A DNA stretch of 52,279 bases from a virus, in UHGV virus genome UHGV-0197780. One strand, given 5' to 3'. A program made the position numbers and the translations under genes. The notes beneath the pieces are model-generated. The model was not told the DNA's origin, did no database searches, and saw only the letters and a list, made by a program, of their open reading frames with translations. Of this stretch, positions 117-19,200 are shown piece after piece (positions within the stretch are counted from its first letter, which is position 1; each line of letters begins with the position of its first letter).

Positions 117-2417
117 TTACCCTAAGGCCTTATTAATTTGTTTTAGGAGTCTTCCGACGTTTCCAATTCTATTATCTTTATCGGCCTCTTCTCCCAGCCA
201 TTCTTTGGATTTTCTAAGATATCCTCGAGCCTTAGCATCCCTATACTTTCTCCAATATTTCAGTGACTGATCTGCATATGACATAGCATGAAATGCCTTT
301 CTTAAATCAGCATCATGGCATTGCTCTAACGACTCCATACTTTCATCTAATGCTTTTCTAACATCATTTGAATCCACCCTGCCAATATTTGCTTTAAACT
401 TAATAATCGCATAAGAGTTTCTGACAGACCAGTTACCGCTTCCACTTTTTGCTATGGCCTCATCAATAACAATAAATGCTCTTTCATGATTGCCTCTTCT
501 GCTTAAATAGAGGGCTTTCTGTTGCAAGTTGAAGGGAGATGCATGTTTCCTAAAGATAATGTCATATATTTTTTCACCATCACTGGTTTCTGGAAATGCT
601 TTTTCAAATAACCGAGCATCATAAGCGCGTCTTTTAAAAGCATCATAATTAGGAATGCAAAAACGTGATACATTATTGTGGAAGTTAACTAACATACAAG
701 CAAGCTCTTTTTCTGGAGCTATAGTTGTAATGTGTTCCGCCAGTAGATTTGAGCGAATTGAGAAGCAATCCTGATCACTCTCAGAATATTCACCAACATT
801 CTCGGATAAACAACTGCTCAATATCTTTATTAAGGCATATATTTCTTCATAGCCAACACGCCCCCCCTGAAAATAACTGTAAATAATATCCATTGATGTC
901 ACACTTCGGCTATTATGAAGATAACAAGCCAGCAAGAAAAGTTGTACTAACTTCTCATCTCTTTTCTTTAGCTCATTCAGAACGTTCTTGAATCTTTCTT
1001 TAATGCTTGGAGTGCGGCAGTTATTTTCAATTAATTCAAACAATGAATCGCCATCTTTTTTATTATAAAATTTTCTTGACTTTAAATCCACTGGTATATT
1101 ATCCGTAATCCCTTGGCAATCAGCATTAGTTATTTGAGTAATATCAATTATCTCGATGTTTTTCCTTAAAAAGTTCGACCTAGAAGCTGAGAGGTAAGCA
1201 TAATCCCTTTCAGCTATAACTAATCTTATATTTGGCTTGAGAGAAAGGTTGTTAAGAGCATCCATTGAAGTTTGCATGTTATCTACAAACAGAAGTACAG
1301 GAATATTTTTTAATCTTGTAGCCAGAGTTTCAGCTTTAGTTATAGATATATCCGAAAGAAATAATTTGATGCCATTAAAGTCATGAAATGCTGCCAACTG
1401 CATTAATAGTGTTGATTTCCCTGTGGCAGGCCCGCCTGTAATTAGTATATTCTTTCCGCTGTTTATATACTCTTCAACAATGGAGTAATAACTCAATCTA
1501 ATTACGCGAGATGAGTAAATATCACTCCAGGAAGGATTTGCTCCTTGGTAAAAGTCATTAATTGATCGTCTTTCTATCTCTGAATGAGACGGTACAGAAT
1601 ATTCCATAAACGGATTTTGATACTTATTATTTGTACTATCAAGGGAATCAATACTTTCGAAGCTAGATAAATAATCTAAAAACTCCTCTGTATCTGCACG
1701 TATTATCTTAAGGTCTAGTGATTGATAATATTCAATCTCACCCTCATCAACAAACTCAGGATGTACAATTATCCAAGCATTTTTCCTGTTTTTCTCATTC
1801 AGTGCATCTGCAAATACCTGTAAAGTTCCCGCATCCTTTAGGGCATATCCCCAAAAAACAGTTGGAAATTTATTCATTACAGATTTTAAATAATTCCACT
1901 TTGTTGGTTCACTTGAAAAAGCATTAGCAATATCAAGGTCGCCAAATATTAAATGAGACTCAGGATCACTGACAGAGCCGTGTAAATAAAAATAATCTAT
2001 AGCAATTTTATCTCTAAAGCTTACGCCATTAAACATTGCATTATTAACATATTTGTGAGGATTTCCTTTGAATATTTTCTCTACAAGATTATCTATATTT
2101 GTAGTAAATATATTTTTAATATTTACATTAGCTAGTTGCTGATATTTAGAACTAAAATCGCCAACTTCGTATCTAGCTCGTATGTAACGGTAAAGGTCCT
2201 CTCTCCTAGATTTAGAGATTAAAGTACACAATTGAGGTAGTTGTAGTATGGGTGGAGAACCTGGAAATTCTTTGAGAATTTCCTTCCTAAGCCCATCACC
2301 AATAGGAAGTGTTTTCCCATTTTGATCAGAAGCTAAAACAGAAAATCCAGCCCCAGTAAAAATATTAATACCTTCACGCAAAACTCGTTCAAAAGTATTT
2401 TTACTTTCAATTTCCAT
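117..2417 (-). CDS. SIR2-like (NADase-type) domain fused to P-loop NTPase (STAND/AAA-like) with a helical C-terminal region. Single-gene antiphage defence candidate (Avs5 / SIR2-STAND-like).
   Basis: The N-terminus carries SIR2 motifs GAGFS, TTNIDNL and LHGS. Downstream are a Walker A (GGPATGKST) and a Walker B-like (VLLFVDN) motif, then an alpha-helical C-terminal third. The listed ORF begins with TTG at 2459; the ATG at 2417 is preceded by AGGAAA. The region is AT-rich (1-2900) against GC-rich phage flanks. Confidence 0.6.
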   Translation of the reverse strand: MEIESKNTFERVLREGINIFTGAGFSVLASDQNGKTLPIGDGLRKEILKEFPGSPPILQLPQLCTLISKSRREDLYRYIRARYEVGDFSSKYQQLANVNIKNIFTTNIDNLVEKIFKGNPHKYVNNAMFNGVSFRDKIAIDYFYLHGSVSDPESHLIFGDLDIANAFSSEPTKWNYLKSVMNKFPTVFWGYALKDAGTLQVFADALNEKNRKNAWIIVHPEFVDEGEIEYYQSLDLKIIRADTEEFLDYLSSFESIDSLDSTNNKYQNPFMEYSVPSHSEIERRSINDFYQGANPSWSDIYSSRVIRLSYYSIVEEYINSGKNILITGGPATGKSTLLMQLAAFHDFNGIKLFLSDISITKAETLATRLKNIPVLLFVDNMQTSMDALNNLSLKPNIRLVIAERDYAYLSASRSNFLRKNIEIIDITQITNADCQGITDNIPVDLKSRKFYNKKDGDSLFELIENNCRTPSIKERFKNVLNELKKRDEKLVQLFLLACYLHNSRSVTSMDIIYSYFQGGRVGYEEIYALIKILSSCLSENVGEYSESDQDCFSIRSNLLAEHITTIAPEKELACMLVNFHNNVSRFCIPNYDAFKRRAYDARLFEKAFPETSDGEKIYDIIFRKHASPFNLQQKALYLSRRGNHERAFIVIDEAIAKSGSGNWSVRNSYAIIKFKANIGRVDSNDVRKALDESMESLEQCHDADLRKAFHAMSYADQSLKYWRKYRDAKARGYLRKSKEWLGEEADKDNRIGNVGRLLKQINKALG

Positions 2418-2908
2418 TAAAGGTTTCCTATATTTATTTAGAGATTGAAGGTTTTTCAAAAGAGATCATTGCCTTTAGTTGGATTTTCTGATCAGAAAAG
2501 CCTATGATTTTAACTTTAACGTTTATTCTACCAATTTTCAAATATTGATTAGAAAGATTCAAAAATGATATAAGCAATTTAAATATAATACTTTTATGAT
2601 ATTTCAATCATATTAACTAAAAACAATGTTCATTCTGTCCGTAAAGTTAAACACATAAATAAAAGAAATTACAACTTCGAGTCCGTGCAGTCAAGAGTCA
2701 CCACTGGGGGTGATGGCGGGGGACAAATTTTGACAACTCATACCCATCACTAATTGACTGACCTGTTCGCGGTTGGTTAACACACTATTATGTAATCTAA
2801 GTCCGCTCCTAGCACTCAGCGGACATCTCAGCTTTGCCTCACCCCGGAATAATTAAACTTAGCTTTGACATCCTGTACCAGCTGCAGTTGATTCTATTTA
2901 AGGCATAA

Positions 2909-3349
2909 TCAGCACCTCTCCGCATTGCGCAGGCAGCGGTTACGCATTTTGGCAAGCAACCAGAGTTCGTTTGCTGTTGTAGCCATCCCAAGCGTCGATG
3001 TGTAAACAGTCGCAGCCCGGCGCCACAGCTTTTTGTCTTCCAGCATCTTCGCCAGGGACAGTGCGTCTTGGACTTTTTTCACATATTCTTCAGATAATTG
3101 TGTTGCAGCCTGCGGCAGGGTAACATCGGGAACCTCAACGCCTGCAACAACCCGGTAGACATACTGGCAGCCGTTATGGGTACGATGGAGTTTTCCCGCG
3201 GCATGTAGCTGCCGCAGTAAGTTACCTGCTGTACTGGCTTGCAAGTCCAGCGCATCACAGACATCCTGCAGGACGCATTCTGGCGTCCGGCTAACGATGG
3301 CAAGCACCATCTGCGCTTTGGTTACTTTGGTTTTTGATTGTTTGGTCAT
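2909..3349 (-). CDS. hypothetical phage protein, N-terminal winged-helix-like
   Basis: The ORF lies downstream of the P-like gene on the same strand. Its ATG at 3349 is directly preceded by the recurring CGAGTTTTGACC motif. The ORF track began it at a TTG inside that motif. Confidence 0.45.
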   Translation of the reverse strand: MTKQSKTKVTKAQMVLAIVSRTPECVLQDVCDALDLQASTAGNLLRQLHAAGKLHRTHNGCQYVYRVVAGVEVPDVTLPQAATQLSEEYVKKVQDALSLAKMLEDKKLWRRAATVYTSTLGMATTANELWLLAKMRNRCLRNAERC

Positions 3350-3362
3350 GGTCAAAACTCGT

Positions 3363-4049
3363 TTACTTGGTTAAACCTGCCGCCTTGCGGCGTTTGTACT
3401 CTTCCATCAGAACCTGCGCTGGCGTCGGCCCTGCTGGATGTCTCGGTGCTGCCAACTGCTGACGAATTGGCGGAATCGAAAACCCGTTAGCCAGGTGTTT
3501 GGTCCATTTCGTGAGTAAGTTATCTGCCAGTTTTTTCAGCTCTCCCTCCGTCAGGTTCCTCTCAACTCCGGTTCTGCGCATTTCAATGCAAATGTGATAC
3601 AGAACATCCTGTTTCCATGGGTATTTGTCGCTTCCCGAATATCGGTAAGACTCGTTTCTCCAGCGTTTGTACTCCGCCATCACTGCATCGGATGTCAGAT
3701 TGAACGGGTTAGCACCGCTAGCAGATACCAGCGCGACGAACTCAGCGAGATCCGGCGGCCATGTGCTGCCCGCGGCGCAACGCTCCATGCACTGCCGGCA
3801 AACCAGCGTAATCTGGGCTTCACTCATCGACCCAATCTGAGCTATCCAGAGTTCTGATGGTTCCTCTCCGTTCTTCAGGATCCATCGGTTCGAAAAGATT
3901 TCGCCCATCACTTCCCATAGGCGCCACGCCGTTTCTACGGCCGTCTGTTCCTGCAGCTCGCAACCGTTGCTCACGGGCGGCTCGAATCTGTTGAACAGCT
4001 CTGGATGCTGCTGGCTCTGCTCGTACTCCCACATGATCGTTACCCCCAT
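3363..4049 (-). CDS. lambda P-like replication protein (DnaB helicase loader)
   Basis: The translation aligns by eye with lambda gpP (…YPWK…, [12 protein letters not shown] vs MEQVNAGMRVARRQ region). It sits immediately after the O-like gene. Confidence 0.65.
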
Positions 4050-4839
4050 TCACTGGTTTTTTCTGGCGGATTTCCGCACGGTTAAGATGTCTTGCTAGTT
4101 TTTGCTCCCACTGGACCTGGTGAAACGCCCTGCCTTCAGCCTGCCAGTACGCGATGAAGCTGCTCAACTCGGCAGCAAGATTTATCCCCGGTCTTAATGG
4201 CATTCCCCAAATCGTTGCCAGTCGGGGAAAATCCTCGGAAGGTTTCCACCCGAAATACATCACAAATTTTCCGAATGCTTGTGTTTCACCAAGAACTATT
4301 CCTGGTTGATTCGGATAGTCAGGCACAACTGGTTCGACCAGAACCTTATGTGTGGGGGTTATATCTTTTGGTTCCTCTGGTAGATTCCGGATCCCGTTTT
4401 TGGGATCGTTTGACGGAAAAAACGGGATCGTTTGGTTGTTTTGCGTACAGGAAACAGTCCCGTTTTCGGGCGCCTTTTCTGCTGTAACAACCCCGTTTTC
4501 GTGTGTGTTTAAACGATCCCGTTTTTGGTAATGTTCCCGTTTTTGGGTGTGTTCAATTTCTGCAACGCTTTCTTCCACACCAAGAAGTCGGTAAACCGGG
4601 ATTTGTTTAGTCTTTCCACGCCGTTCACCTGTATCTTCAATAAGCCCGATCGAAACCAGATACTGCAGGCTCGACTGGACCGTTTTCTTATCCAGCTCAG
4701 TTGCTTCTGCCAGCGCAGGAATGGATGGAAAAGCACAGAGATCAGCTCCGCACATGTCGGCCATCCAGGTTAGAACAGCTTTTGCAGAGGACTTCCCTGT
4801 CTTGACTTTTTTGGCCCATCGCATCGCGTCAATGCTCAT
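3820..4839 (-). CDS. lambda O-like replication initiator with intragenic iterons (origin)
   Basis: The N-terminus is an HTH. The middle is a low-complexity linker encoded by repeated CCCGTTTT/AAACGGGATCG elements. A strong GGGGGG SD precedes the ATG at 4839. The frame stays open 230 nt into the P-like gene. Confidence 0.6.
4380..4560. repeat. iteron cluster (ori-lambda-like) inside the O-like gene
   Basis: There are at least 5 copies of aaacgggatcg / cgatcccgttttt in direct and inverted orientation within 180 bp. Confidence 0.6.
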
Positions 4840-4883
4840 GAAGCCCCCCTATTTTCTGTACGGTACTCATTGTCAAAACTCGA

Positions 4884-5438
4884 TTAAAAAAACTGTGGCG
4901 CTACGGCGCTGATGCTCGCCAGAAGTGGTCCCGCCGCATCTGCAGGAAGCATGTTAAAAAGTGCAATTGCTGCCTCCCGAATTTCACGCTCTAACTTCTG
5001 CAACGGAGCACCAAGCAATTTTGCCTGGTGCGCTTCGCTACACTCTCTGATTGCTTGAGCCACCAGCTCGCTTTCAGTCAATCCACGTTTCAATCCGTGT
5101 TTGCGCGCAATCTCAATAGGCATCGCATCAGCGATCGCTCCTGAAAGCTGCATGACGTAGCTGGTGTACTTCTCTGATCCGGATTCGTTTTTCAGGTAGC
5201 GGTACAGATTCTGTTTATTGACGTTTATTCCGCGACCGTTTTGTTTTCTCCATTGCTCATCCACCAGCTGCGCGATGTGGTCCTGTGCACGTCCAGGTAA
5301 AGTCGACTCCCATTCCTGAACGGCAGCAAAAATTGCTCTACTCTTCATCCGAGCCCGGCGTAGACCGGAAAACTGATTTTCTGAGTTCAGTTGCAGGCCC
5401 ATTACCGGGTTATGCTTTTTAAAAGAGATGGTTTGCAT
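4884..5438 (-). CDS. phage regulatory protein in cII position (CII/CP76-like or YdaT-like)
   Basis: The ATG at 5438 has a perfect AAGGAG SD. It lies between the Cro-like and O-like genes. The call rests on position only. Confidence 0.35.
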   Translation of the reverse strand: MQTISFKKHNPVMGLQLNSENQFSGLRRARMKSRAIFAAVQEWESTLPGRAQDHIAQLVDEQWRKQNGRGINVNKQNLYRYLKNESGSEKYTSYVMQLSGAIADAMPIEIARKHGLKRGLTESELVAQAIRECSEAHQAKLLGAPLQKLEREIREAAIALFNMLPADAAGPLLASISAVAPQFF

Positions 5439-5440
5439 AC

Positions 5441-5662
5441 TTACTCCTTCGGTAATCCATCCGTTGGGTTTGGGTAGAGATCTGGTCTGAGTTCATGTGG
5501 AGTAACTTTCCACTCCAATGCCTTACTGACTTTCAGAACCAACTCGCCGGGAACTTTATGTTTGAACCAACCATTTACTGTTTGTGCTCGCCGATTAAGC
5601 CGCCGTCCGATTTCCGATTGGCTACACACGGCAAGTAATTTTTTTTGAAGGGATGGCTTCAT
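5441..5662 (-). CDS. Cro/YdaS-like HTH regulator
   Basis: The motif QSEIGRRLNRRAQTVNGW is a YdaS/Cro-type HTH. It is divergent from the CI-like gene. The probable ATG at 5662 has a GTGGAG SD; the listed ORF starts at a GTG at 5674. Confidence 0.6.
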   Translation of the reverse strand: MKPSLQKKLLAVCSQSEIGRRLNRRAQTVNGWFKHKVPGELVLKVSKALEWKVTPHELRPDLYPNPTDGLPKE

Positions 5663-5674
5663 GCGCTGCTCCAC

Positions 5675-5737
5675 TAAGCACTGTAAATTTGAATTACAGT
5701 TTAATCAGTTTATTTCGATAGTGTCAAATCATTCGAT
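5675..5737. promoter_or_regulatory. OR-like divergent promoter/operator region
   Basis: On the minus strand, TTGACA-N17-TTAAAC reads as a PR-like promoter. The palindrome ACTGTAA-N7-TTACAGT is an operator-like site. TCGATA half-sites (atttcgatag, cattcgatatg) overlap the -35. The same TATCGATA core recurs at 6300. Confidence 0.5.
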
Positions 5738-6187
5738 ATGAGGCCTGAAGAAAAAATCTGTATAATCTTTCTCATGTGTTTGTTTGGGTGGATGAAGATG
5801 AACTTTGGTGTTCGACTGCAACGAGTCTTAGATGAGATAGGAATGTCTCAATCAGAACTGGGGCGGAGGATCGGTGCGACATCCCAATCAGTGAATGGCT
5901 GGTGTCAGGCTGGAATCCTTCCCAGAAAAGAAATGCTTGAGCAACTTCCTGATATAACAGGAAAACCTTTGTATTGGTTTTTCATGACAGATGAAGACGA
6001 AGAGACGCTGCAGCCGCCAAGATCGGAAGATATCTATGTCCTTACCCCGGAGACCAAAAAGCTCATAGAAATTTACGATCAGCTTCCTCAAGTGGAGCAA
6101 GAACGATTCGTCGGGTTAATGCAGTTAAGGCTGGAAGAACTCGATGCTTTCATGAACGAATATTTAATGAAACGAAAGAAAGACTAG
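5738..6187 (+). CDS. CI-like repressor, XRE-family HTH
   Basis: The HTH motif is MSQSELGRRIGATSQSVNGW. A TATAAT at 5760-5765 inside the listed N-terminus suggests the true start is the ATG at 5804 (MNFGVRLQ…), which has a GGGTGG SD. It is followed by an intrinsic terminator. Confidence 0.6.
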   Translation: MRPEEKICIIFLMCLFGWMKMNFGVRLQRVLDEIGMSQSELGRRIGATSQSVNGWCQAGILPRKEMLEQLPDITGKPLYWFFMTDEDEETLQPPRSEDIYVLTPETKKLIEIYDQLPQVEQERFVGLMQLRLEELDAFMNEYLMKRKKD

Positions 6188-6210
6188 AACAGCCTTCCCC
6201 CCCTTCATAA

Positions 6211-6238
6211 GCGCCGCCTTCGGGCGGTTTTTTTGTGC
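6211..6238 (+). terminator. rho-independent terminator after the CI-like gene
   Basis: The sequence gcgccgccttcgggcgg is followed by seven Ts. Confidence 0.6.
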
Positions 6239-6282
6239 CTGCTCCCCACCTCACATCCAATTCTGAAATTTAAATCATCAGT

Positions 6283-6312
6283 TTTAATTGACAGCTGTAG
6301 TTTATATCGATA
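6283..6312 (+). promoter_or_regulatory. pL-like early-left promoter with operator core
   Basis: TTGACA, a 17-bp spacer, then TAATAC. The spacer contains TATCGATA, the same core as the OR half-sites. Confidence 0.4.
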
Positions 6313-6459
6313 ATACTATCTCCGTCCTATGACGTCATCGAGGCAGGAAGCCCACGAAGTAGCTGCCGGCGGCATACGAAACACCGGATGAGATGACAGC
6401 AATATCAATCGCAGCAGGTTCAACGTTCGGCTGCCCGGCCTTAAGGGAAGGAAATAAGT

Positions 6460-6582
6460 ATGGATAAAGCATACGAAGACTATTTTGAAAACCTCTCTGA
6501 AGGAGAAGAGGCACTGAGTTTCAGCGAGTTTACCGCGGCACTTTCAGGTAAGCCGGCAGATTGCGCCTCTTCTGAAATGTAA
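6460..6582 (+). CDS. small acidic protein (40 aa), first gene of the early-left operon
   Basis: Preceded by GGAAGGAAATAAGT before the ATG. The translation is MDKAYEDYFENLSEGEEALSFSEF…. It is below the ORF-track length threshold. Confidence 0.3.
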   Translation: MDKAYEDYFENLSEGEEALSFSEFTAALSGKPADCASSEM

Positions 6583-7002
6583 TGGAAATCCTGCGCGCTT
6601 CGTGGTGGTGAATTGCAGGGTGAAAAAGCTCAATCGTGAAGATCAGCGTCACGACACCACCGACGAAGCGCGTCGAAGTAGTGAAAATAAAAAGTCAGGG
6701 TTTGCAATGCGGTGAATGCGGCTATGCGCACGCGACACAGTTAAAAAAGTAAACATGGCGGTTATTCACACGTTGTGGGGAAAAAGTTGTCGGCGGTAGT
6801 TGTTAACTGGCTGCCGTCACCGGGAGGCACCCGGCGCCGCATTGCAAAACCACATCCTAATACTGAGTTAACTGGAGATAACTATGAAGGATTTTGCCCG
6901 AGTACCTACCGGGAACCAGGCGACCCGCCTGAACTGGTTAGAGGTGAGACTACGCCAGCTGTGTTACTTGCTGGCGCAGAAAGGAAACCCTGAGGCTGAG
7001 GC

Positions 7003-7197
7003 ATGAATACCCTGTTTGCCCTTGTCATCAGCGTTTGTGCTCTCACTGGTGAATGCTCTGATGTTCTGATCGGTGTTTATCCATCAGAGGCCAGTTGCAA
7101 CAGCAACGCCGATGAACAAAAAGTACAGGGCCAGTGCCTCCCCTACCGAAATGCACAAAACATGGCTGACGACCAACAGCCTGCAGTGAGTTTTTGA
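7003..7197 (+). CDS. small protein with N-terminal signal-like hydrophobic segment
   Basis: A GAGGCTGAGG SD precedes the start. The N-terminus reads MNTLFALVISVCALTG. Confidence 0.3.
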   Translation: MNTLFALVISVCALTGECSDVLIGVYPSEASCNSNADEQKVQGQCLPYRNAQNMADDQQPAVSF

Positions 7198-7215
7198 ATC
7201 GAGTTTTGACCAATG
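7197..7215 (+). repeat. 19-bp direct repeat AATCGAGTTTTGACCAATG (copy 1 of a recurring gene-start motif)
   Basis: An identical 19-mer recurs at 7633-7651. Related copies ending in the start ATG lie at 3347-3361 (reverse) and 4868-4885 (reverse). A fifth, cgagttttgataacc, is at 11667-11680. Confidence 0.6.
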
Positions 7216-7584
7216 GCCGTTACGGCCGGAGAAGTGATTATGGAATTTGGAATGAAACGCGTTCTGGCATCTGTCCAGGCCGCCGCCACTTTGAATAAGC
7301 TCTATGACGGCTCGCCCGTTTCACTGACGGCCATCAGTAAAGAGTCAAAGCTGTCTACTTCATACCTTGAGCAGATCTTCAAAAAGCTGCGGGCGGGTAA
7401 CCTGGTTATTTCACAGCGTGGCCCAGGTGGTGGTTATAGCCCCCGCGGCGATGACATCACCGTTACAGAAGTGATCACTGCGGTATCTAAACTGCCAGCC
7501 CATAAAACTTTTGAGCCTATCCTGCGAGCGCTTAACGACGTTCGCGTATCACAGCTGCTGCGGGGCGATTCGCCAGCCCCATAA
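7213..7584 (+). CDS. Rrf2-family-like transcriptional regulator, N-terminal HTH only
   Basis: The motif SYLEQIFKKLRAGNLVISQRGPGGGY matches the IscR/Rrf2 signature …LVxSxRGxxGGY. It lacks the Cys cluster. The gene is bracketed by the 19-bp direct repeats. Confidence 0.5.
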   Translation: MAVTAGEVIMEFGMKRVLASVQAAATLNKLYDGSPVSLTAISKESKLSTSYLEQIFKKLRAGNLVISQRGPGGGYSPRGDDITVTEVITAVSKLPAHKTFEPILRALNDVRVSQLLRGDSPAP

Positions 7585-7632
7585 AGCACAAAACCCGCGC
7601 AAGGCGGGTTTTGTGCCCGGTCAGCCGACCAA

Positions 7633-7651
7633 AGCTTTCCGGAATCGAGTT
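7633..7651 (+). repeat. 19-bp direct repeat AATCGAGTTTTGACCAATG (copy 2)
   Basis: Identical to 7197-7215. It ends in the ATG of a 32-codon ORF that overlaps the start of the exonuclease gene. Confidence 0.6.
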
Positions 7652-7725
7652 TTGACCAATGACCACCACCAGGGCGGCTGCCATCAGCTGCCGGGTATCT
7701 TACAATCCAAAGGAGCCCAAACGCA

Positions 7726-9864
7726 ATGAACAACTACCCGTATCTCATTAAAGCTAAGGCAAAAGCAAACGAAGCGAAAAGCCTCTTCTGCTGGTTCTCT
7801 GCTAAATCCGATTCTCGCGCCGAGCGCAAAATCCTGGACATCCTAGAAGACGCTGAAATTAACGTTGGCCGCGGCGCCAGCCATCAGCTGCCGATCCGCA
7901 CCAACTGGCTAATCGTTGATGACTTACCGGAAGAAGGTGTACTGGATGATACCTGGTGCGATCGTTACGAGCTTGGTGGTAAAGACGGGCTGACATGGAA
8001 AAAAATCGTTGCGCAGGCGGCTGCTGAACCACAGCCCTCCAGTAAACCAGAAAACGATATCTCTCCTGCAAATAGCGATGAAGAGGACTATTCGAACAAT
8101 GAAGAAGCACTCTTCAACCTGGCAGAAATGTCATTCCGCACGCAGCTGCTTGCCCAGTATATGGCCGACGAACGTCACGTGTATCACATTAGCATTCCTC
8201 ATCGTAACCGCCTTTCAGCGATGGAAATGGATACGGATAATCACGGTGTGCAGAATCTGCTGCTGACGGCAGAAAATATTCCGGAGCTTAAAAAATATGA
8301 TATGCCTGGCCTGTGGAAATTTACCAGTGCATTTAAGAGCGTATTTCCTGCGGGGAAACGCCATGAGCTCGGCAAGCAAATTCAGTTCGCCAAATTGTGG
8401 CTTGAAACGTCTCACATTGACCGCGGGATCCTTACAAAGGAATGGGCTGCTGGAAACTATATCACCTCAATAAACAAAACCGATACTGGCGCCAATGCTG
8501 GTGGCGGTAACAAAACTGACCGCAATCCGGATTATCAGCATTCGCTGGATACTCTGGATATAGAGATCGCCCTTGCGACGATGCCTATGGATTTTGATAT
8601 CTATAATTTTCCGGCATCAGTCCACCGCCGCGCGAAGGAAATAGTACAGAAGAAAGAAAGTCCATTTAAAGAATGGTCTGCAGCATTACGGAGCACACCA
8701 GGCATCCTTGATTATTCCCGTGCAGCGATTTTTGCACTGATCAGGGAAGCATCCAGTGGAATAACTCCTTTTCCAGATCGGTTGCGTGGCTACATCAACG
8801 CGAATCTGACTGAACATAAGCATGATACCCCAAGCGCTGAAATGCTTGCCAAGGCGGGACATATTCCATCTGCTGCAGTCACTCTGGATGCAATAAACCA
8901 AGCAATCGCCGGAGAGGATAGCAGCGCAAAACTGGAAACACTCTCCTCTGACTTTAAAGCAGTTGGCACCGAACTCGTAAAAGAAGCTCAAAAGCAGCGT
9001 CCGAACGCTAATCAGGTTCTGGCCGCCGAGCGCGGCGAATATGTCGAAGGGATTAGCGACCCTACTGATCCGAAGTGGGTAACCGAAGACCTTCCCAAAT
9101 CAAGGCAACCTGAGGTTTCAAAAATTGGGGACGGAGTATTTTCCATTGACGGTCTTGTTGACGTTACGGGCAAGGTTAACCAAAAAGAAAAAACAGATGA
9201 AGTTGTTCATCAAACGGATGCTGTAGATATTGAATCCGGTCCTCATAATAAGGAGGAAGATCAGCCTATTGATTATGTTCACGTTATGGTTGATCTGGAA
9301 ACCATGGGTAAAAAACATAACGCCCCTATCGTCGCTATTGGTGCGGTTGTTTTTGACCCGGCAACCGGCTCTATTGGAGAAAGTTTCTATAAAGTCGTAT
9401 GCCTTGAATCCTCTGTGAACTGGGGCGCCGTAATCGATCCATCTACTGTTATCTGGTGGCTTAAGCAGTCCTCCGAAGCACGCTCTGCGATCGTAAATGA
9501 TGATGCTATCCCGTTGCTGGATGCATTACTCCAGTTCAGAGAATTTGTCTCTGATAATGTTGCTGGCGGGAGCAAAAAGGCACAGGTATGGGGTAACGGT
9601 GCGTCATTCGATAACTCCATTCTGCGTTCTTCTTACGATTGCATTGCTGAAGATTATCCGTGGGAATACTGGAACGATCGGGACGTACGAACAATGGTAG
9701 AGCTCGGCCAGGCCATTGGCTTCGACCCCAAAACAACGATCCCGTTTGAAGGTGATCGTCACAATGCTCTCGCTGATGCTATTCATCAGGCCCGCTATGT
9801 ATCAGCAATCTGGCAGCGAATAATTTCCGGCAATCAGGTGCTGCAAAAATTGATGCAAAACTGA
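7726..9864 (+). CDS. phage exonuclease with a C-terminal DnaQ-like (DEDDh) 3'-5' exonuclease domain
   Basis: The C-terminal ~180 aa carry VMVDLETMG … GASFD … H…D motifs of DEDD exonucleases. An AAGGAG SD precedes the start. It occupies the position of the recombination genes in the pL operon. Confidence 0.55.
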   Translation: MNNYPYLIKAKAKANEAKSLFCWFSAKSDSRAERKILDILEDAEINVGRGASHQLPIRTNWLIVDDLPEEGVLDDTWCDRYELGGKDGLTWKKIVAQAAAEPQPSSKPENDISPANSDEEDYSNNEEALFNLAEMSFRTQLLAQYMADERHVYHISIPHRNRLSAMEMDTDNHGVQNLLLTAENIPELKKYDMPGLWKFTSAFKSVFPAGKRHELGKQIQFAKLWLETSHIDRGILTKEWAAGNYITSINKTDTGANAGGGNKTDRNPDYQHSLDTLDIEIALATMPMDFDIYNFPASVHRRAKEIVQKKESPFKEWSAALRSTPGILDYSRAAIFALIREASSGITPFPDRLRGYINANLTEHKHDTPSAEMLAKAGHIPSAAVTLDAINQAIAGEDSSAKLETLSSDFKAVGTELVKEAQKQRPNANQVLAAERGEYVEGISDPTDPKWVTEDLPKSRQPEVSKIGDGVFSIDGLVDVTGKVNQKEKTDEVVHQTDAVDIESGPHNKEEDQPIDYVHVMVDLETMGKKHNAPIVAIGAVVFDPATGSIGESFYKVVCLESSVNWGAVIDPSTVIWWLKQSSEARSAIVNDDAIPLLDALLQFREFVSDNVAGGSKKAQVWGNGASFDNSILRSSYDCIAEDYPWEYWNDRDVRTMVELGQAIGFDPKTTIPFEGDRHNALADAIHQARYVSAIWQRIISGNQVLQKLMQN

Positions 9865-11286: not shown

Positions 11287-11320
11287 TTTTGATAACTTGT
11301 TTTGATAAAATTTTGATAAC
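11287..11320 (+). repeat. three direct TTTTGATAA(C) repeats, candidate Int arm-type sites
   Basis: ggTTTTGATAACttgTTTTGATAAaaTTTTGATAAC lies just 3' of int. A fourth copy, gagTTTTGATAACc, is at 11671-11680 on the other side of the icd core. Confidence 0.4.
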
Positions 11321-11330
11321 CGTTCGAAAA

Positions 11331-11365
11331 CTAATAATAAAAACGGGAACCACTAGGTTCCCGTT
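11331..11365 (-). terminator. icd transcription terminator
   Basis: On the minus strand a perfect 10-bp stem AACGGGAACC/GGTTCCCGTT with a 4-nt loop is followed by TTTTATTATT. It lies immediately downstream of the icd' stop. Confidence 0.55.
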
Positions 11366-11387
11366 CTGACATAATCTTAGGGGCAGA

Positions 11388-11552: not shown

Positions 11553-11694
11553 TAGTTCTCTGCATTGATCTTAATCCTTTGATTTTTTAAAAAAATATGT
11601 TTCTGAACACTTATCTAGAACCATTTTAATGTTAATTCTAACATGCTGATTACATGATAAATTATCCGAGTTTTGATAACCTATTTTCTCTCAA

Positions 11695-13191
11695 TCAGTA
11701 CTCTTTTGTTTGAACCTGCTTGTTCAAATCACGCACTTGTTTTGTTAACTCCTGCACCGTAAGAACAAGATCCGCGATGATGGCCGTATGGTCTACGTTA
11801 AGGATATTGATCTTCTCGCCATCAATTTCTACATCGCCGCTTTGAAAGGTGTAAATCGGGTCAACTTTTTCAGCTTGTTGAGCAATAAATCCACGCCTAC
11901 GGCGTGTTTCGCCTTTCATGTTGAACTCACATACCCCCAGCGCGTTAATACGCCTGGAGGCCCCTTCCTGGGATTCCGTAAAATCCTTTTTCAGCCGCAC
12001 GTCTGAGCCAGTGGTCATAACATCACCTTTAGGGGTGGAGATTGTCCCTCCGGTGTAAAAGAGCCAGGCATCTTTTTGGCCAAAACCGTCCATATACAGT
12101 ACCACCCGGTGGTTGTACCCAACGTATTCTTCAAGGTAGAAACCACCCCACGCTCCAGACGTGTCGCCGTTTCCTCCACGCCCTGTCATGCGGGACCGGA
12201 CTCTGCCACCGGAAACTAACGCGCCGATGGCAGGGGAACCGAAGTCGGTCTGCTGGGACACACAGTCATAGCGACACTGCATCCAGCTGCCGATGTCGGC
12301 CGCTTGCCCCACCCGCAGGTCTCTGTCTACCCCTAGATGACTTCCCTGAACACTAAGTTGATCTGCGGCTGTAGTGATGATGCGTGCGGTATAGTCGTTA
12401 GCACTTTTGTTATGATGAAAATCGATGTACGGAGTGCCCATCGACAGCTCTAACGCCTGGGAATACAGCTTGCCCTTTGCCGTATTATCGAAACCACCAC
12501 CGACAACCAAATCTCCGGGCAACGTCGTCTGGTTATTGGTGCCAATAACGAGGATGTCATCAAAGGTGTCTGCCGGTGATACAGTGGTAGCTCTTGAACG
12601 CTGAACCCTGAACGGTGTTCCCGAGCCAACGGCAATCGTCCCGCCTTGCCCCTGTTTTTTGAGCAGAGCCAGATCTGAATTCTTACCGAGAATAAAACCG
12701 GCATTATCGCTGGTTATAACCTGCGAGCCGTCGAGTTTGTTTCCTCCGGTGAGTTTTGCCAGCGCGTTAAGATCCGATGCTTTCGCCATCCCGGCTATCG
12801 CCGGCACGGTCACCTGCTTTCCTGTGATCGGATCAGTCAGGGTAATATTGCCGCTGCCGGTCAGGGCCATCGACCAGCCCTCCACTACACTACGCCAGAA
12901 TGCAAACGCGCTGGCCAGCTGGTTAGCAAACGACGAGGTGCTGGCGGTTTCAGCGGTAATAATGCCGTAACTGGCACCGGAAAATGCGGTGGTGATATTC
13001 CGGGTCAGCGTCAGTTGCGTGTCGCTGTCCACGGATTTGATCGCATACAGGTCAGCACTACCGCTGCGGTAGACCACTAGAATCGACCCGGGCAGTATCC
13101 CCAGCGCCTCCTGTGACCATTTTGTTGTCGCACCTGTCACCCGTGCCTGCGACGCGGCACCCGTGACGGTACCGACTTCATACATCGCCAT
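11695..13191 (-). CDS. side tail fibre protein with C-terminal S74-type intramolecular chaperone
   Basis: The body is Gly/Ser/Thr-rich fibre sequence. The C-terminus has GSDVRLKKDF…INALGVCEFNMKG, which fits the SDxRxK autocleavage motif of endosialidase-type chaperones. An AGGAGG SD precedes the start. Confidence 0.55.
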   Translation of the reverse strand: MAMYEVGTVTGAASQARVTGATTKWSQEALGILPGSILVVYRSGSADLYAIKSVDSDTQLTLTRNITTAFSGASYGIITAETASTSSFANQLASAFAFWRSVVEGWSMALTGSGNITLTDPITGKQVTVPAIAGMAKASDLNALAKLTGGNKLDGSQVITSDNAGFILGKNSDLALLKKQGQGGTIAVGSGTPFRVQRSRATTVSPADTFDDILVIGTNNQTTLPGDLVVGGGFDNTAKGKLYSQALELSMGTPYIDFHHNKSANDYTARIITTAADQLSVQGSHLGVDRDLRVGQAADIGSWMQCRYDCVSQQTDFGSPAIGALVSGGRVRSRMTGRGGNGDTSGAWGGFYLEEYVGYNHRVVLYMDGFGQKDAWLFYTGGTISTPKGDVMTTGSDVRLKKDFTESQEGASRRINALGVCEFNMKGETRRRRGFIAQQAEKVDPIYTFQSGDVEIDGEKINILNVDHTAIIADLVLTVQELTKQVRDLNKQVQTKEY

Positions 13192-13259: not shown

Positions 13260-16200
13260 TCAGGTTGATGAACCGCGAATTACGTTGTTATTGCGCGCGG
13301 CGAAGGCGTCGAATCTTGAGAGGATGGTTAATACCATCTGTCCGTTACGGTCCAGGTAACAGCCATATCGCAGAACAGCGTCGCCAGTACCGGCAGGGAC
13401 GACAAATGACATGTTGTCTACGTTCATTGACTCTTGCGCCGTTAACAGGCGTGTTGCTCCACCTGTTTCATACATAAGCTCAATGCCTAGCTCCATACTG
13501 CCGCCACCAGACGTAGCGCCTGTGCCACGAAGAAGCATTGCATACGACAGATAGCCAGGATTCAGTCCGCCGTCAGCCCCTGGCGCGTAGGACATCCCCG
13601 CTCTGAGTTTCGCGCCGCCGTCGATAGTGATGCTATCCGTCTGGAGGAGTCCACCGCGAATATTGATCACCTGGTCGAAATTCTGCCGCCGGAACCGGGC
13701 CAGCTCAAACCACTGCCATGTAGCCTTCGGCACCTTGCGCGTGCGGTGCTGAGCGATGTTGATCGCAAATGACCCGATGTCGCCCTCGATGTGGTTCGCA
13801 TATACCGTACCCTGGAACCAGCCGTCAGTCGCATAAACCGCACCGCGAACGATCACGTTGTTGAACTGCGAAGAGCCATCCTTAGCGATACGCCAGCCGC
13901 GTGACCCGTCAACAAAGTCATTCGAGCGGATCTCGTGGCCGATCTTCGCGTTCGTGATGGAACCGTCCGCGATTTTGGTTGAGGTCAGGGAACTGTTTTT
14001 GATACGTGCCGTATCGATATACAGCTCATTGCCTTCGGCAACCATCACCGGAACAGCCGTCGCATTATTACGGTTAAACAGCGAGAAGCGGTCAGCGTAG
14101 AGGATCATGTCGCTCGTTTCACCATTGCTGCCCAGCGTAATCCCCGCGCCAACATTCTTCCCGTTAACCGTCTCAACCTTCATCGACCACAGCGAACTCA
14201 CCGTACCATTCACATCCGCCACGGTTTTGGCGGTGTTCTGAACGGAAGCACTGAGATCCCCGACACTGGATGTCAGGGTCGTCTGCTGCGTTGCCAGCGC
14301 CTCCAGTGCCGTTGCATGCGTCTGCTGGGTACTGGTGATACTGGCCACCGATTTAATCGTATTGTCCAGCGTCGTCTGGTTTTTGATGTTGGCGGCCGCC
14401 TGCGCGTCAATCTGCGACTGAAGCGAGGTATTCAGGCTGGCCTGTGTGCTCTGGCTGTCGCTTAGCGTCTTCGCCATGTTATCGACGCGGGAGTTGGCAT
14501 TATCCACTTTCGTGGCCAGTGCCGTCTGCTGCTGCGCCTGGGCGGTGATTTTCCCTTCGGCATCCGTTACGCGAGCCGTCAGACCGCTCACGGCACTCGC
14601 CGTCGCGTCAGAGGCATCCTGTGCCGCTTTCGCATCGGTAACATCCGTGATAACCAGATCGTCGATATACAGCGAATAACCGGGGGTGCCGCTGCCGGAG
14701 GCGCCACGGGTAGAGATCCAGACCACTGCGCGTGTTCTCCCACCCCCGTTGTTACTGGCAATACCCGTAAATTTCACCCACTTATCACGCCCACCAAGAG
14801 CGGCTTCGCTGACAGTGACCGCCGACTGCCAGGAGTTTTGACCGGCAGCATTCAGTGAGTTAATGCCGACCAGCGTTGTCCACCCGGAGGATGGCGCCTG
14901 ATCCGCCGGCATCATAGCCCAGAACTCAAACCGGAACTTCGCATCCTCACGGACTGACTGCCAGCTCCCAAGCTGTTTATCGCTGTTGCCGTTGTTGTTC
15001 GCTCCTCGACTCACCTGCAGGCTCATATTGCCGGTGAATTTCTGAGACGCCACCACAACGGCGGTGCCGCCCCCGCCCAGCACATGACCATCGCTGTAGC
15101 TTTCAAACGTACCGTCAACCCACGGATTAGCTCCCTGAGTACTGATGGTATTGATGCTGCTGGTCAGCGACGTGATACTCTGCGACTGGCTGGTGATAGT
15201 GTTTTCCACCTGGCTTACGCGACCAGTCAGTGAACTCACTGCAGTCGTGTCAGCCTTTTTACTCACCGTATCGTTTGTCGACCTGAGGCTGTTCTCCAGC
15301 GCCGTTATCGAGGAACTCAGGGAGTCAATATTACCCCCCTGGGTCTTCACTGTGTTCTGGAGCGTGGTAATTGCCGACGCGTTCGCATCAGCCTTCATCA
15401 TCACACCGCCGGCTGCACCCAGCCCCATCATTATCCCGTTCACAAATTCGACTGAGGTCGAAATGTGAGCGGTGGCATCTCCACCGGTTGGCGCACGCAG
15501 TTCCAGACCATCGCCAGGCTTCATACCTTTGCGACCAAGGAGAATGTACGCGCCGCGATATGGCAGAGAGTTGACTACTTCGGATGTACCACCAAGAGAT
15601 TCCAGAGCAGACAATAATCTACCTCGGTTGCCAGATGGCTCATCGAATGTCAGGACGCAAACGTAAGTGCCACTAGTCAACGCCCCGATATCAGCCGACA
15701 TCGTGTCGCCATTATTCGCGCTGCCAAAGACATCGTATGTTTTGGAGGTCGCAATCACCGCTGATCCGTCGCTTTGTTTTGCAAAAGTGACCAGCGCCCA
15801 GCTGCGACCAGGGCTAAACAGGTTCTTGCCGCTTTCATCAAAAACCCCAGGAGTTACGCTGTTGCCAAGTCCCCGTGCAGTGACAGTAAACACAGTGCGA
15901 CGGTTCATCGAGGCCTGCAGGCTGGTAATGCTACTGTTCGCCGCAGTTAAATCGCCCCCCTGAGATGTCACCGTGTTCCGGAGATCCTGCAATGCAGAAG
16001 CATCAGCCTTCCTGGCAATGTTGTTCTGAGCTGTCGACAGCCCGTTTTCCAGCGATGTGGTGCGATTACCGATAGAGCTTATGGAAGTGCCCTGCTGATT
16101 CACCGTACTCTGTAACGAAGACAGCGCAGAAGAGTCCGCTTTTTTAGCAACGTTTGCATCAGTTGTCGCCAGACTATTCTTCAGTAAAGAAATATCGCTG

Positions 16201-19200
16201 GACGCCGACGTTATATCCTTGCCCTGCTGAGTCACTTCGTTAGTGAGATCAGCGATCGCCTTGGCGTTCGCGATAGTACCGGCATTTCTGCGGGTCACCT
16301 TAATGTTATAGATCGTGAGCGTAATGGCGTTTCTGCTATAAGGTTGGAGATAGCCAGTTGTCGCGCCAGCCGGGACAGTGATGGTTCCAGTTACGGCTTT
16401 CTTCTCGCCAGCTGCATAATTTAACGCCTCCACGTAGACCGAGTTGTTCGTCAGGCTCGGGCCATCGAAGCGAATACCCCATGCCAGACCGTTGATTGCG
16501 ACACCAGCCAGACAAAGAAGACTAAAGTCTAGAATGTCGCCAGGTGTTACGGAAAACTTAGGTGAAGTTGGCGCCCATGCTGCTGTATCGATCACAGCCG
16601 GATAACCGTCAACAGTTGTTGCATGACCACCCCAACCCTGAGCGTTATTCAACATTGCGGAGTTTGGAACAATGTTGTCGCCCACCGTTAAAGTATTTTC
16701 TAACAACGTTACGCGATTACCCTGGCTCGTCAGAGCGTCGCCCTGAGAAGTCACGGTGTTCTGGAGAGCGTTCAGCGTAGTTGAGTCAGCCTTTTTACTG
16801 ACATTACTGTTTGTCGTGTTCAGGTTGTTCTGCAATGCAGTAATCTGGCTGCTCGCGGAGGTGATGTCTTTACCCTGCTGAGTAACGGTGTTTTGCAGCG
16901 TAGAGATAGCCGAGGCGTTAGCATCAGCCTTCATCATTACACCACCACCAGCGCCCAGACCTGACATGATGCCGTTAACAAACTCAACAGACGTTGAGAT
17001 GTACGAATCGGCCGCGCCGCCAGTAGGCGCACGTAACTCCAGACCGTCACCAGCTTTCATACCCTTGCGACCAAGCAGGATATAGGCGCCGCGATAAGGC
17101 AGAGAGTTCAAGACCTCCGCTGTGCCACCCAAAAGCTCCATTGCGGCTAAAATAGACGCACGGTTTCCGGCCGGCTCATCGTAGGTCAGCACACAAACAT
17201 AAGTGCCATTAGCCAGCGCCGCAATGTCGTCAGACATCGTTTTGCCGTTATTGGCAGAACCAAAAACGTCATACGTCTTGCTGGTGTCGATAGAGGTCGA
17301 GTTATCAGAATTTACCTTAAAGGTAATCATCGTGTAGCTACGACCAGGGCTAACCAGTTTATTTCCTGACTCATCGAACACGCCATCTTTCACGCTCGGA
17401 CCAATGCCTCTGGAGGTCACGGTGAACACGGTGCGGCGATTGATTGACGCCTGAAGGTTAGCGATGCTGCTGTTAGATGCCGAAATATCCTTGCCCTGTT
17501 GGGTCACGGTATTCTGCAGACTAGATAGCGCCGTCGCGTCAGCTTTCTTTGCAACGTTGGCATTGGTGGTGCTCAGGTTGTTCTGCAGGCTTGTAATGCT
17601 GCTTGAGGCTGAAGCAATGTCTTTGCCCTGCTGGGTAACCGTATTTTGCAGTGTCTGGAGAGCTGCGGCGTCCGCTTTTTTCGCGACGTTCGCGTTGGTC
17701 GTGTCCAGATTGTTTTTCAGATCCGTAATGCTGGTGGACTGCGACGCAATATCTTTACCCTGCTGGGTTACAGTATTCTGGAGAGAAGACAATGCGGAGG
17801 CGTTGGCGTCGATTTTGACACTATCTGTCACATCGATGACATAGAAATCATCAAAGCAACGACTCCCGGCTGTCAAACCGTTACTCAGCGTAACCGGGAG
17901 CTTGGCTGTCTCCGTGGCCTTCCAGCGACCGGAAATCAGCGTCCAGTCGGAACCGATCGTCCCGCTATTGTACGGTCGCTCAAACACCGGCTGACCAGCG
18001 GAGTTGCTGATCCGCAGCTTGTTGTTACCTGCTCCGTTATCAGTGGTCGCTCCGAGATCCTTAACCCATACCCCGATTTCATACGTCCGACCCTGTACAA
18101 AGCTTACATACTGTCCCGGTGACACATAACCAACACCAACCCTCAGCGCTCGTGTCCCACCATGTGGAGTGGAGGTCTCAACCACACTGGCTGCCGCTGA
18201 CTGTCCGATATAACCATCCAGTCCTCGCTCAAACGAGGGATTCACGACCAGGTTACCCGGTATCTTCCCGCTGGCATCGATATCTGCCGCGACCTGCGAG
18301 AGGCTGTTCGACAGGTTCGTCAGCGAATTGCTCTGGCTCTCCAGCGTTTTGCCCTGCTGCGTCACTTTCGTGTCGAGCGTAGCCAGCGCAGTCGCATCGG
18401 CTTTCTGCGCCAGCGCTTTATCGGTATTCGCCAGATTTCCGGTCAGCTTCGTGATGGCGCTGTTCGCAGCCGTCAGGTCATTGCCCAGCTGTGTGACGGT
18501 ATTGGTCAAATTCTGCACCGCTGTCGCATCAGCCTTTTTGGCCACTGCGGCATTGGTGGTTGCCAGCCCGTTTTCCAGCTGGGTTGTCCGGTTGCCGGTC
18601 GAGGTCAGCAGATTACCCTGTTGAGTCACGGTGGTGGTCAGGGAGTCAACCGCCGCCGCCGTGGCATCCGCAGTATCCTGAACCTTTTGCGCCGCTGTCA
18701 CATTTCGCATATGCCAGTCCGTAACGAACCATACGGTGCCGAATGGGCTGGACTGGTTAATTTGCAGGAATGGACGGAAGAAGCCGCGATCGACAATCCC
18801 CTGAGTAATTTTGAATCGCCAGGTTACTCGCTGCCATGTGGCCGACGCCTTGCGGTTGCCGCCGGATGACAGAGGCGCGCCCACGCTGCCGCTTGGCCTT
18901 GTTGCGGTTCCGAGATACAGGTTGAAATCAGCGGAGCCGGTACCACACGCGACGAGAGCAGACATTTCATAGACATCCCCCAATGTCGCCGGAATAGCAG
19001 CAAAATTGGGGTGATGGTCGCGAGCCGCAATGCGTGCAACATAAGCGTATGGGCAATTGGCTGGCACGCCCTCAGACGAGCTGGAAACCACAGTGAAGCC
19101 CATCTGACTAAACTCTGGGTCAAATGTCGGGTTGCTAATCAAATCGCCACTTGTCGCATTCCCTGCGCGTACAGATGAATTAAGCGCAGTGATACTGCTA

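Follow-up and report, generated by a model that had tools for sequence, protein, structure and literature searches.

Boundary sequences of lambdoid phages were reported by Clark, Inwood, Cloutier and Dhillon (2001, J Mol Biol 311:657) in the context of the linker idea of Susskind and Botstein (1978). As they are cited in PMC3029335, they were proposed to be recombination foci that assort modules and possibly regulate expression. According to reviews, most mosaic boundaries carry no conserved sequence that can be found (PMC3029335). Start-Associated Sequences (SAS) have been described in Cluster K mycobacteriophages, and both their function and their reader are unexplained (PMC3203893). Here, we analyzed UHGV virus genome UHGV-0197780, a stretch of 52,279 bases (hereafter the window) that represents a lambda-like temperate phage genome in vegetative order. 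A short motif, CGAGTTTTGAC, occurs in it four times (sites A to D), each time leading into an ATG in one of the two divergent early operons. We found it to be a real, conserved and lineage-specific junction element, so that the linker idea put forward in an initial annotation of this DNA is largely right. Judged from sequence comparison, it is a clear case of a conserved module linker, and it probably restarts translation as well.

As described in PMC3029335, lambdoid boundary sequences resemble the motif in being short, conserved and located at functional-module borders of the early ("metabolic") region. The motif is conserved between differing flanks, stands at module borders and coincides with mosaic joints. 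It differs from them in being one sequence at four boundaries of one genome and in being fixed in a stop-start register, as compared with that description. The lambdoid boundary sequence is the closest known kind, and the motif is a new and unusually clean member of it from a different lineage.

SAS share a further set of properties with the motif. They are asymmetric (about 13 bp), keep one orientation, lie a few bases from start codons (mostly ATG), precede some of the non-structural genes, from various families, sometimes include the upstream stop codon, and are lineage-specific (PMC3203893). The motif is asymmetric as well, and it is found in a single orientation immediately upstream of non-structural gene starts. 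However, the SAS consensus, GGGATAGGAGCCC, includes a Shine-Dalgarno core, whereas the motif is unrelated to it and has just a GAG about 10 nt from the ATG. The AGGAG core of SAS lies 3-7 bp before the start, while the motif runs into the ATG and the second codon. There are four copies of the motif against 11-19 of SAS, and the hosts are unrelated, with no sequence similarity between the elements. The stoperators of Cluster A mycobacteriophages are also asymmetric (a 13-mer), occupy short intergenic spaces and are oriented with transcription, but they share the sequence of the early-promoter operator and number more than 20, whereas the motif has four copies and is lacking from the promoters (PMC9283540). 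The motif resembles stoperators less than it resembles SAS.

In the nut sites of lambda-type phages (boxA plus boxB), a hairpin comes after a conserved linear element, and both early operons have such sites on the sense strand. Compared by eye with the boxA consensus, the motif matches about 6-7 of 11-12 positions. In place of a uniform boxB, the hairpins differ between sites C and D, are weak at B and are absent downstream of A, and there are two motif sites per operon, far from the promoters. A boxA/nut assignment was rejected, as no sense-strand YGCUCUU(U)A occurs in the early region. No arginine-rich early open reading frame (ORF) was recognized in the window as an N-like gene. Operators of the T4 RegA protein are located at early start codons. 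The motif is like them in being a shared sequence at such codons, and a RegA-like protein was not identified here.

Four copies of the motif at early gene junctions

Exactly four copies of CGAGTTTTGAC were found in the window, at 3351-3361(-), 4872-4882(-), 7200-7210(+) and 7646-7656(+), corresponding to sites A, B, C and D. The mean expected by chance is 0.03 copies, and four copies were reached in 0 of 100 dinucleotide shuffles. All of them lie within the early region, on the sense strand of the divergent PR and PL operons (Table 1). The initial annotation had recognized a four-copy motif ending in ATG, and each copy does so (3349-3347, 4870-4868, 7213 and 7659); its fourth copy, placed at 7633-7651, was 10 bases off and truly lies at 7643-7661. 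The forward copies C and D are identical 19-mers, AATCGAGTTTTGACCAATG (7197-7215 and 7643-7661), with starts 446 bp apart. The segment between them measures 427 bp instead of the 436 bp first given, and it contains the Rrf2-like gene only, as had been noted. A related copy had also been reported next to the attachment site. That sequence, cgagttttgataacc at 11667, has 2 mismatches in 12 positions and no CAATG, and at the same stringency the window contains 9 matches with 4.3 expected. Since it is at chance level, we do not count it as a member of the motif.

At sites A, B and C, the motif stands directly between a stop codon and an ATG and constitutes essentially the entire intercistronic spacer. 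The extended DNA consensus is TAA-T-CGAGTTTTGACC-A-ATG-ACC; as mRNA of about 22 nt it reads (stop codon) A A/U CGAGUUUUGAC(C)(A) AUG ACC. CGAG is preceded by a stop codon at 0-5 nt in all variants of these three sites. The motif AUG has no proper Shine-Dalgarno sequence, only the invariant GAG about 10 nt upstream together with a U-run.

The motif ATG is used as a real start. The site A ATG is the start of a winged helix-turn-helix (HTH), PerC-like gene: the Pfam HTH match begins at residue 9 of the protein started there, which makes a later start impossible. No Shine-Dalgarno sequence was scored at the PerC-like start in relatives, and in an E. coli relative the PerC-family gene annotated by NCBI starts at about the end of the motif variant. 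At site B, the ATG opens a short ORF in the window, and the O-like gene has its own ATG at 4839, preceded by GGGGGG as a Shine-Dalgarno sequence. For most of the unrelated O-gene types in relatives, the site B ORF ends about -5 to +8 nt from a Shine-Dalgarno-led start; in some other types, the site B ATG is the actual O start. The Rrf2-like gene is read in the frame of the site C ATG, which lies 9 codons ahead of an ATG at 7240 led by GGAG; in relatives, the site C ATG opens ORFs of 2-8 codons or starts a different gene (gene X). The site D ATG begins an ORF of 30 codons, which overlaps with the start of the exonuclease gene.

The motif contains TTGAC, and it might be read as a regulatory site in DNA, namely a promoter -35 element (TTGACC), the site of a phage DNA-binding protein or a repressor-bound roadblock similar to stoperators. 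Its asymmetry and its orientation along transcription recall mycobacteriophage stoperators (PMC9283540), and the PR and PL operator regions also have ATCGA. However, neither PR nor PL contains the motif itself, even when 2 mismatches are allowed, while stoperators share the sequence of the true operator. The promoter alternative raised in the initial annotation found no support either: no copy has a -10 element at a usable distance, 16-19 bp downstream, where the sequence is variable, and a promoter scan lists no promoter at the motifs. Among candidate DNA-binding proteins, the Rrf2-like and PerC-like genes are missing from some motif-bearing relatives. Overall, a role as a DNA regulatory site appears very improbable. 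An operator of YdaT (CII-like) was considered and rejected, as boxes of the form (T/A)TGATT-N6-AATCAA (published as ATGATT-N6-AATCAA) are absent from the early region and the motif is not palindromic.

Conservation across relatives

Scanning IMG/VR with the motif pattern yielded at least 120 stretches. Among the matches listed, about 70 represent the same four site types, 13 have all four copies in the same two-plus-two orientation, and the remaining ones resemble chance. Every relative with three or four copies shows the two-plus-two orientation.

For a sample independent of the motif, loci were picked through the YdaT-like protein. This gave 21 species-level genome loci with YdaT-like protein identities of 62-98%, from at least 10 genera (Klebsiella, Kluyvera, Enterobacter, Citrobacter, Scandinavium, Atlantibacter, Dryocola, Buttiauxella, Pluralibacter and Phytobacter). 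The motif, with 0-1 mismatch, directly follows the YdaT stop codon in all 21, and most of them have A, C and D as well. Loci fetched from IMG/VR by YdaT contain the motif in 79 of 80 cases and all four copies in 59. A wider IMG/VR search for distant YdaT relatives returned close ones only (84-99% identity). The motif is thus a gene-boundary sequence in related phages, as the linker idea anticipated, and the opposite outcome, its absence from the gene boundaries of relatives, was not observed.

Mean pairwise identity across 19 of the genome loci is 0.89 for the stop codon and the next 12 nt. Third codon positions of the YdaT-like gene in the same loci reach 0.51, and its first and second positions 0.83. 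The difference between 0.89 and 0.51 indicates that the motif is under constraint or is constantly homogenized.

In the INPHARED phage collection, the motif is present in Kp4865-4 and Chris1 only. Klebsiella phage Kp4865-4 is the closest deposited phage, with 94% identity across parts of the early region, and its complete record has the motif at its four early sites only. The complete record of Citrobacter phage Chris1 contains B, D and a decayed C only, with an ars operon where A is expected. Rac of E. coli K-12 lacks the motif, and the conserved block surrounding site D (D block) occurs in 1 of 5426 complete E. coli genomes. A literature search for the motif sequence retrieved unrelated primers only.

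Mosaic joints at the motif edges

The four sites mark the junctions between immunity and replication (B), replication and the PerC-like gene (A), small early genes and an accessory slot (C), and the slot and recombination-integration (D). Novel joints were expected to coincide with the motif if it is a linker, and they do. When two loci have the same upstream flank and different downstream flanks, the median collapse of similarity lies 0 nt past the ATG (interquartile range 0-3, 305 pairs). When the upstream flanks differ and the downstream flank is the same, the collapse lies at a median of 3 nt before CGAG (0-5, 39 pairs). The flanks also reassort: four-gamete quartets, with all combinations of two upstream and two downstream types, were found at A/B (3) and at C (1). 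Behind the conserved YdaT end, at least six unrelated O-gene starts occur downstream of B, and around A several P-gene ends are joined to several PerC-like gene starts in differing combinations. With joints at both of its edges, the motif is a shared island between joints.

These observations raise the question of whether the motif is a recombination linker only, that is, an identity island kept by repeated exchange among co-infecting relatives and devoid of any role in expression. Edge joints, reassorting flanks and the bracketing of the two most exchangeable modules by the motif would all be accounted for, and lambdoid boundary sequences offer a precedent (Clark et al. 2001, as cited in PMC3029335). 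However, an unselected 15-nt stretch should drift like synonymous sites, yet the motif does not. A DNA linker needs no stop-start register, no sense orientation and no ATG that is used as a real start. Furthermore, conservation extends over the entire D block, and no joints occur inside it. We consider a purely recombinational role improbable.

A candidate element for translation restart and module exchange

The reading that we favor, to which we give a little less than an even chance on the strength of these comparisons, is that the motif is a lineage-specific module-junction element combining a Shine-Dalgarno-poor translation restart site with a short identity island for module exchange. In termination-reinitiation coupling, an AUG lies a few nt after the upstream stop codon, or a short ORF ends on the next start. 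Ribosomes terminating on the upstream gene would restart 12-19 nt further on, at the motif AUG. In some cases this AUG would itself start the following gene, as for the PerC-like gene at A and, in relatives, for gene X at site C and some O types at B; in others it would open a short ORF ending at or near the next Shine-Dalgarno-led start (B and some C variants). The expression of each module would thereby be coupled to that of the preceding one. Because all modules would start with the same 19-23 bp, recombination there, with crossovers inside the island, could swap modules and leave expression intact. The modules exchanged in this way would be the replication genes O and P (B to A), the accessory slot (C to D) and the different PerC-like genes after A.

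Several points weigh against this proposal, many of them from site D. The nearest upstream stop codon there is about 75 nt away, the ATG is changed to ATA in Citrobacter-type relatives with CGAGTTTTGACC intact, and the end of the short ORF ranges between -56 and +181 nt, counted from the exonuclease start. ATA is likewise found in some copies of B and C (L132, L134, L135 and L144). Translational coupling normally needs no conserved sequence, and the motif is conserved beyond the needs of restart, which amount to little more than a nearby AUG; the near-invariant CGAG..UUUU..GAC..CAAU instead points to a sequence-specific reader. As for exchange, 19-23 bp is short for homologous recombination, and joints at gene boundaries are also expected from selection acting on random illegitimate recombinants. 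The joint analysis was in addition based partly on loci found by the motif pattern, a bias from which the YdaT-anchored sets are free.

Clear examples of the linker hypothesis of phage mosaicism are scarce, and here a single motif marks four boundaries, with hundreds of pairwise joints at its edges. Phages with the motif are found in Klebsiella, Enterobacter and Citrobacter, and the hypothesis can now be put to a direct test. The motif is also a defined Shine-Dalgarno-poor start site used by real genes. Together with the structured exonuclease leader described below, it provides a concrete target for studying the coupling or gating of early expression in this prophage lineage, which is widespread and has clinically important hosts. 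Should the junction prove to be as portable as these comparisons indicate, it might be a natural standard connector for phage engineering.

Table 1. Positions of the motif sites, hairpins, promoters and genes of the early region in the window
Feature	Position	Strand	Description
Site A	3344..3365	-	TAA (P-like gene stop) A CGAGTTTTGACC ATG ACC
P-gene-end hairpin	3378..3392	-	GCCGC-AAG-GCGGC, in the last P-like codons, about 15 nt upstream of site A
Replication module	3363..4839	-	O-like 3820-4839 and P-like 3363-4049; bracketed by sites B and A
13-codon upstream ORF	4829..4870	-	Opened by the site B ATG (4870-4868); TGA 8 nt into the O-like gene
Site B	4865..4886	-	TAA (YdaT-like gene stop) T CGAGTTTTGAC A ATG AGT
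YdaT-like gene	cII position, PR operon	-	TAA stop directly precedes site B
YdaS-like gene	cro position, PR operon	-	
PR-like promoter	5698-5727	-	TTGACA-18-TAAACT (promoter scan); drives the operon YdaS, YdaT, (B), O, P, (A), PerC-like
CI-like gene	5738-6187		Between the PR-like and PL-like promoters
PL-like promoter	6288-6317	+	TTGACA-18-AATACT (promoter scan); drives small ORFs, DUF1482, (C), Rrf2, (D), exonuclease, xis, int
Site C 5' hairpin	7164..7181	+	GGCTG-ACGACCAA-CAGCC, in the last DUF1482 codons
Site C	7195..7218	+	TGA (DUF1482 gene stop) AT CGAGTTTTGACC A ATG GCC
Site C 3' hairpin	7215..7227	+	GGCCG-TTA-CGGCC, begins at the G of the ATG
Rrf2-like gene	7240..7584	+	Content of the C-D slot here; likely true start 7240, after GGAG
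D block	7582..7725	+	Structured non-coding leader of about 140 nt of the exonuclease gene; hairpin 1 7586-7616, hairpin 2 (loop CGACCAA) 7617-7642, unpaired motif, hairpin 3 7673-7692
Site D	7643..7664	+	AAT CGAGTTTTGACC A ATG ACC; no adjoining stop codon

RNA structure and a possible reader

The D block folds more stably than its shuffled versions (z = -4.8). In a consensus structure built from 24 sequences, the motif is unpaired, and hairpin 2 covaries in L010. The 5' hairpin of site C, whose loop CGACCAA is the same as that of D-block hairpin 2, has 99.4% of cells paired among 31 sequences; it shows modest covariation, in the form of a single compensatory pair (G-C to A-U). In relatives without DUF1482, the same hairpin closes the coding region of a different gene. 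The 3' hairpin of site C takes the forms GGCTG..CAGCC and GGCC..GGCC in relatives, with G-C/A-U and G-U variants, and the 40 nt downstream of this site have a mean fold z of -1.4. Before site A, an unrelated P-gene end in relatives has AGCC..GGCU or ACCC..GGGU at the place matching the P-gene-end hairpin.

A serious rival to translation restart is that the motif is an mRNA recognition site for a trans-acting, sequence-specific reader, which could be a protein of the host or the phage, an RNase or a small RNA. In this view, the motif would serve in translational control as an operator, in RNA processing or in non-canonical antitermination. Restart from its AUG would take second place, and the control of four delayed-early modules would be coordinated. 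The near-invariance of the motif over at least 10 host genera, far exceeding that of synonymous sites, its strict sense-strand orientation and its persistence at D without an upstream stop codon, and even without an ATG, argue for such a reader. So does the unpaired position of the motif between hairpins at C and D, where some compensatory changes occur. There is no canonical boxA in the early leaders of the phage, and precedents of a similar shape exist in SAS (PMC3203893) and the T4 RegA operators. However, our searches gave no candidate reader, the hairpins at A and B are weak or absent, and motif variants are not concerted within genomes, unlike what co-evolution with a phage-encoded reader would produce. 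We regard this explanation as rather unlikely, although less so than the DNA site or the linker without function in expression. It is possible, with the same reserve, that a reader of the 22-mer, whether a host factor found throughout the Enterobacteriaceae or a conserved phage product, attaches to early mRNA at all four junctions and gates the replication genes, two regulators and the recombination/integration genes together. If this were true, the motif would be an enterobacterial counterpart of SAS or of T4 RegA control, and the same junction would keep modules exchangeable.

Searches for RNA partners were negative. The best duplex with 16S rRNA is 11 bp with nucleotides 902-912, which are buried, and 78% of shuffled motifs pair as well. 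No phage-encoded antisense partner beyond noise (about -16 kcal/mol) was found on the early sense transcripts, and no Rfam family covers the motifs. Pairing of the motif with CAAAGCUU of D-block hairpin 2 was rejected: by eye it is not maintained in L010, L111 and L129, and the consensus fold leaves the motif unpaired.

Some further features of these structures were noted. The D block is more than 90% conserved across genera and matches no Rfam family. Whichever gene precedes it stops at a TAA in the first bases of the block. D-block hairpin 1 (7586-7616) is followed here by TTTTGTG and resembles an intrinsic terminator, and most relatives have TAAGTA at this place. Upstream of site C, the GGCUG-ACGACCAA-CAGCC hairpin (7164-7197) encodes a protein tail, ..ADDQQP.., which ends DUF1482 in the window. 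In relatives lacking DUF1482 (L111, L126, L134 and L139), the ADDQQP tail ends a 40-amino-acid protein (6884-7006 here), so that DUF1482 looks inserted between that protein and its old tail.

The slot between sites C and D

The slot between the forward copies is variable, as the initial annotation had led us to expect. It holds Rrf2 alone in most relatives (about 445 bp), and otherwise gene X alone, gene X followed by Rrf2, or nothing. In the empty slot of L132 and L133, both motif copies are kept 96 bp apart, and the same junction sequence is found in L025 and L099. In L141 and L143, copy D is kept and copy C is missing. Slot contents begin to differ past the C hairpin and cease to differ at the TAA opening the D block, both outside the motif. 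In every genus, the conserved flanks of copy C differ from those of copy D, and each copy is part of a distinct larger conserved unit.

A single gene flanked by identical 19-mers had been read as an Rrf2 cassette inserted by recombination at the linker, with the copies as its footprint. Such an origin, in which the forward copies are a duplication made upon insertion of Rrf2 (a target-site duplication), is contradicted by the empty slots, which keep both copies, and by the persistence of D without C. It also leaves the differing conserved flanks of C and D, the ends of the slot variants outside the motif and the two further copies in the other operon without explanation. We find it barely credible, and the narrower form of a cassette with target-site duplication was rejected, because both repeats are also present in relatives with an empty slot (L132 and L133, with the same junction sequence in L025 and L099). 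Nor is the flanked segment present without repeats in all relatives. A deletion series starting from gene X plus Rrf2 accounts for the slot states at least as well as insertion does.

Gene X (about 100-160 amino acids, beginning MSANDLALKFSTAPAEQLIG...; L009, L061, L070 and L136) has no Pfam match. In some relatives it is one long ORF from the motif ATG, and in others it is split.

Other features of the genome

Around 60 nt just 3' of PL (6337-6395, TCATCGAGGCAGGA.GCCCACGAAGTAGCTGCCGGCGGCATACGAAACACCGGATGAGATG) are nearly unchanged in distant relatives (L132 and L139). The idea of a structured leader there is unsupported, as the single-sequence fold of the PL leader at 6326-6440 equals that of shuffles (z = 0). 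Two sub-threshold Rfam matches were recorded, one to STnc100 in the PL leader (6703-6848; 34.6 bits, E = 1e-4) and one to STnc150 in the 3' fragment of icd (11299-11371; 42 bits). This icd fragment of 272 bp follows int and constitutes an attachment site of the phage 21/e14 type; the virion genes, including tail-fibre genes, lie beyond it on the minus strand. Within the O-like gene, repeated (GAT)CCCGTTTT(TGG) units on both strands (4385-4555) resemble origin iterons.

The "exonuclease VIII" protein encoded at 7726-9864, the RecE-like exonuclease of the PL operon, has 712 amino acids. It has the N-terminal region only of ExoVIII; its C-terminal domain is Rv2179c-like, of the 3'-5' exoribonuclease type (E = 4e-70), and is not the classical RecE nuclease domain. 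Directly after the PerC-like gene, a low-GC gene at 117-2459(-) encodes a SIR2 plus STAND NTPase protein of about 765-780 amino acids, and is probably an anti-phage defence gene carried by the phage. In Citrobacter phage Chris1, the ars operon is located at roughly the place of this gene (L148, 41010-45317). Beside a Peptidase_S74 tail-fibre gene (11695-13191), a single ORF of 3895 amino acids at 13260-24947(-) encodes a tail-fibre or host-recognition protein of very large size.

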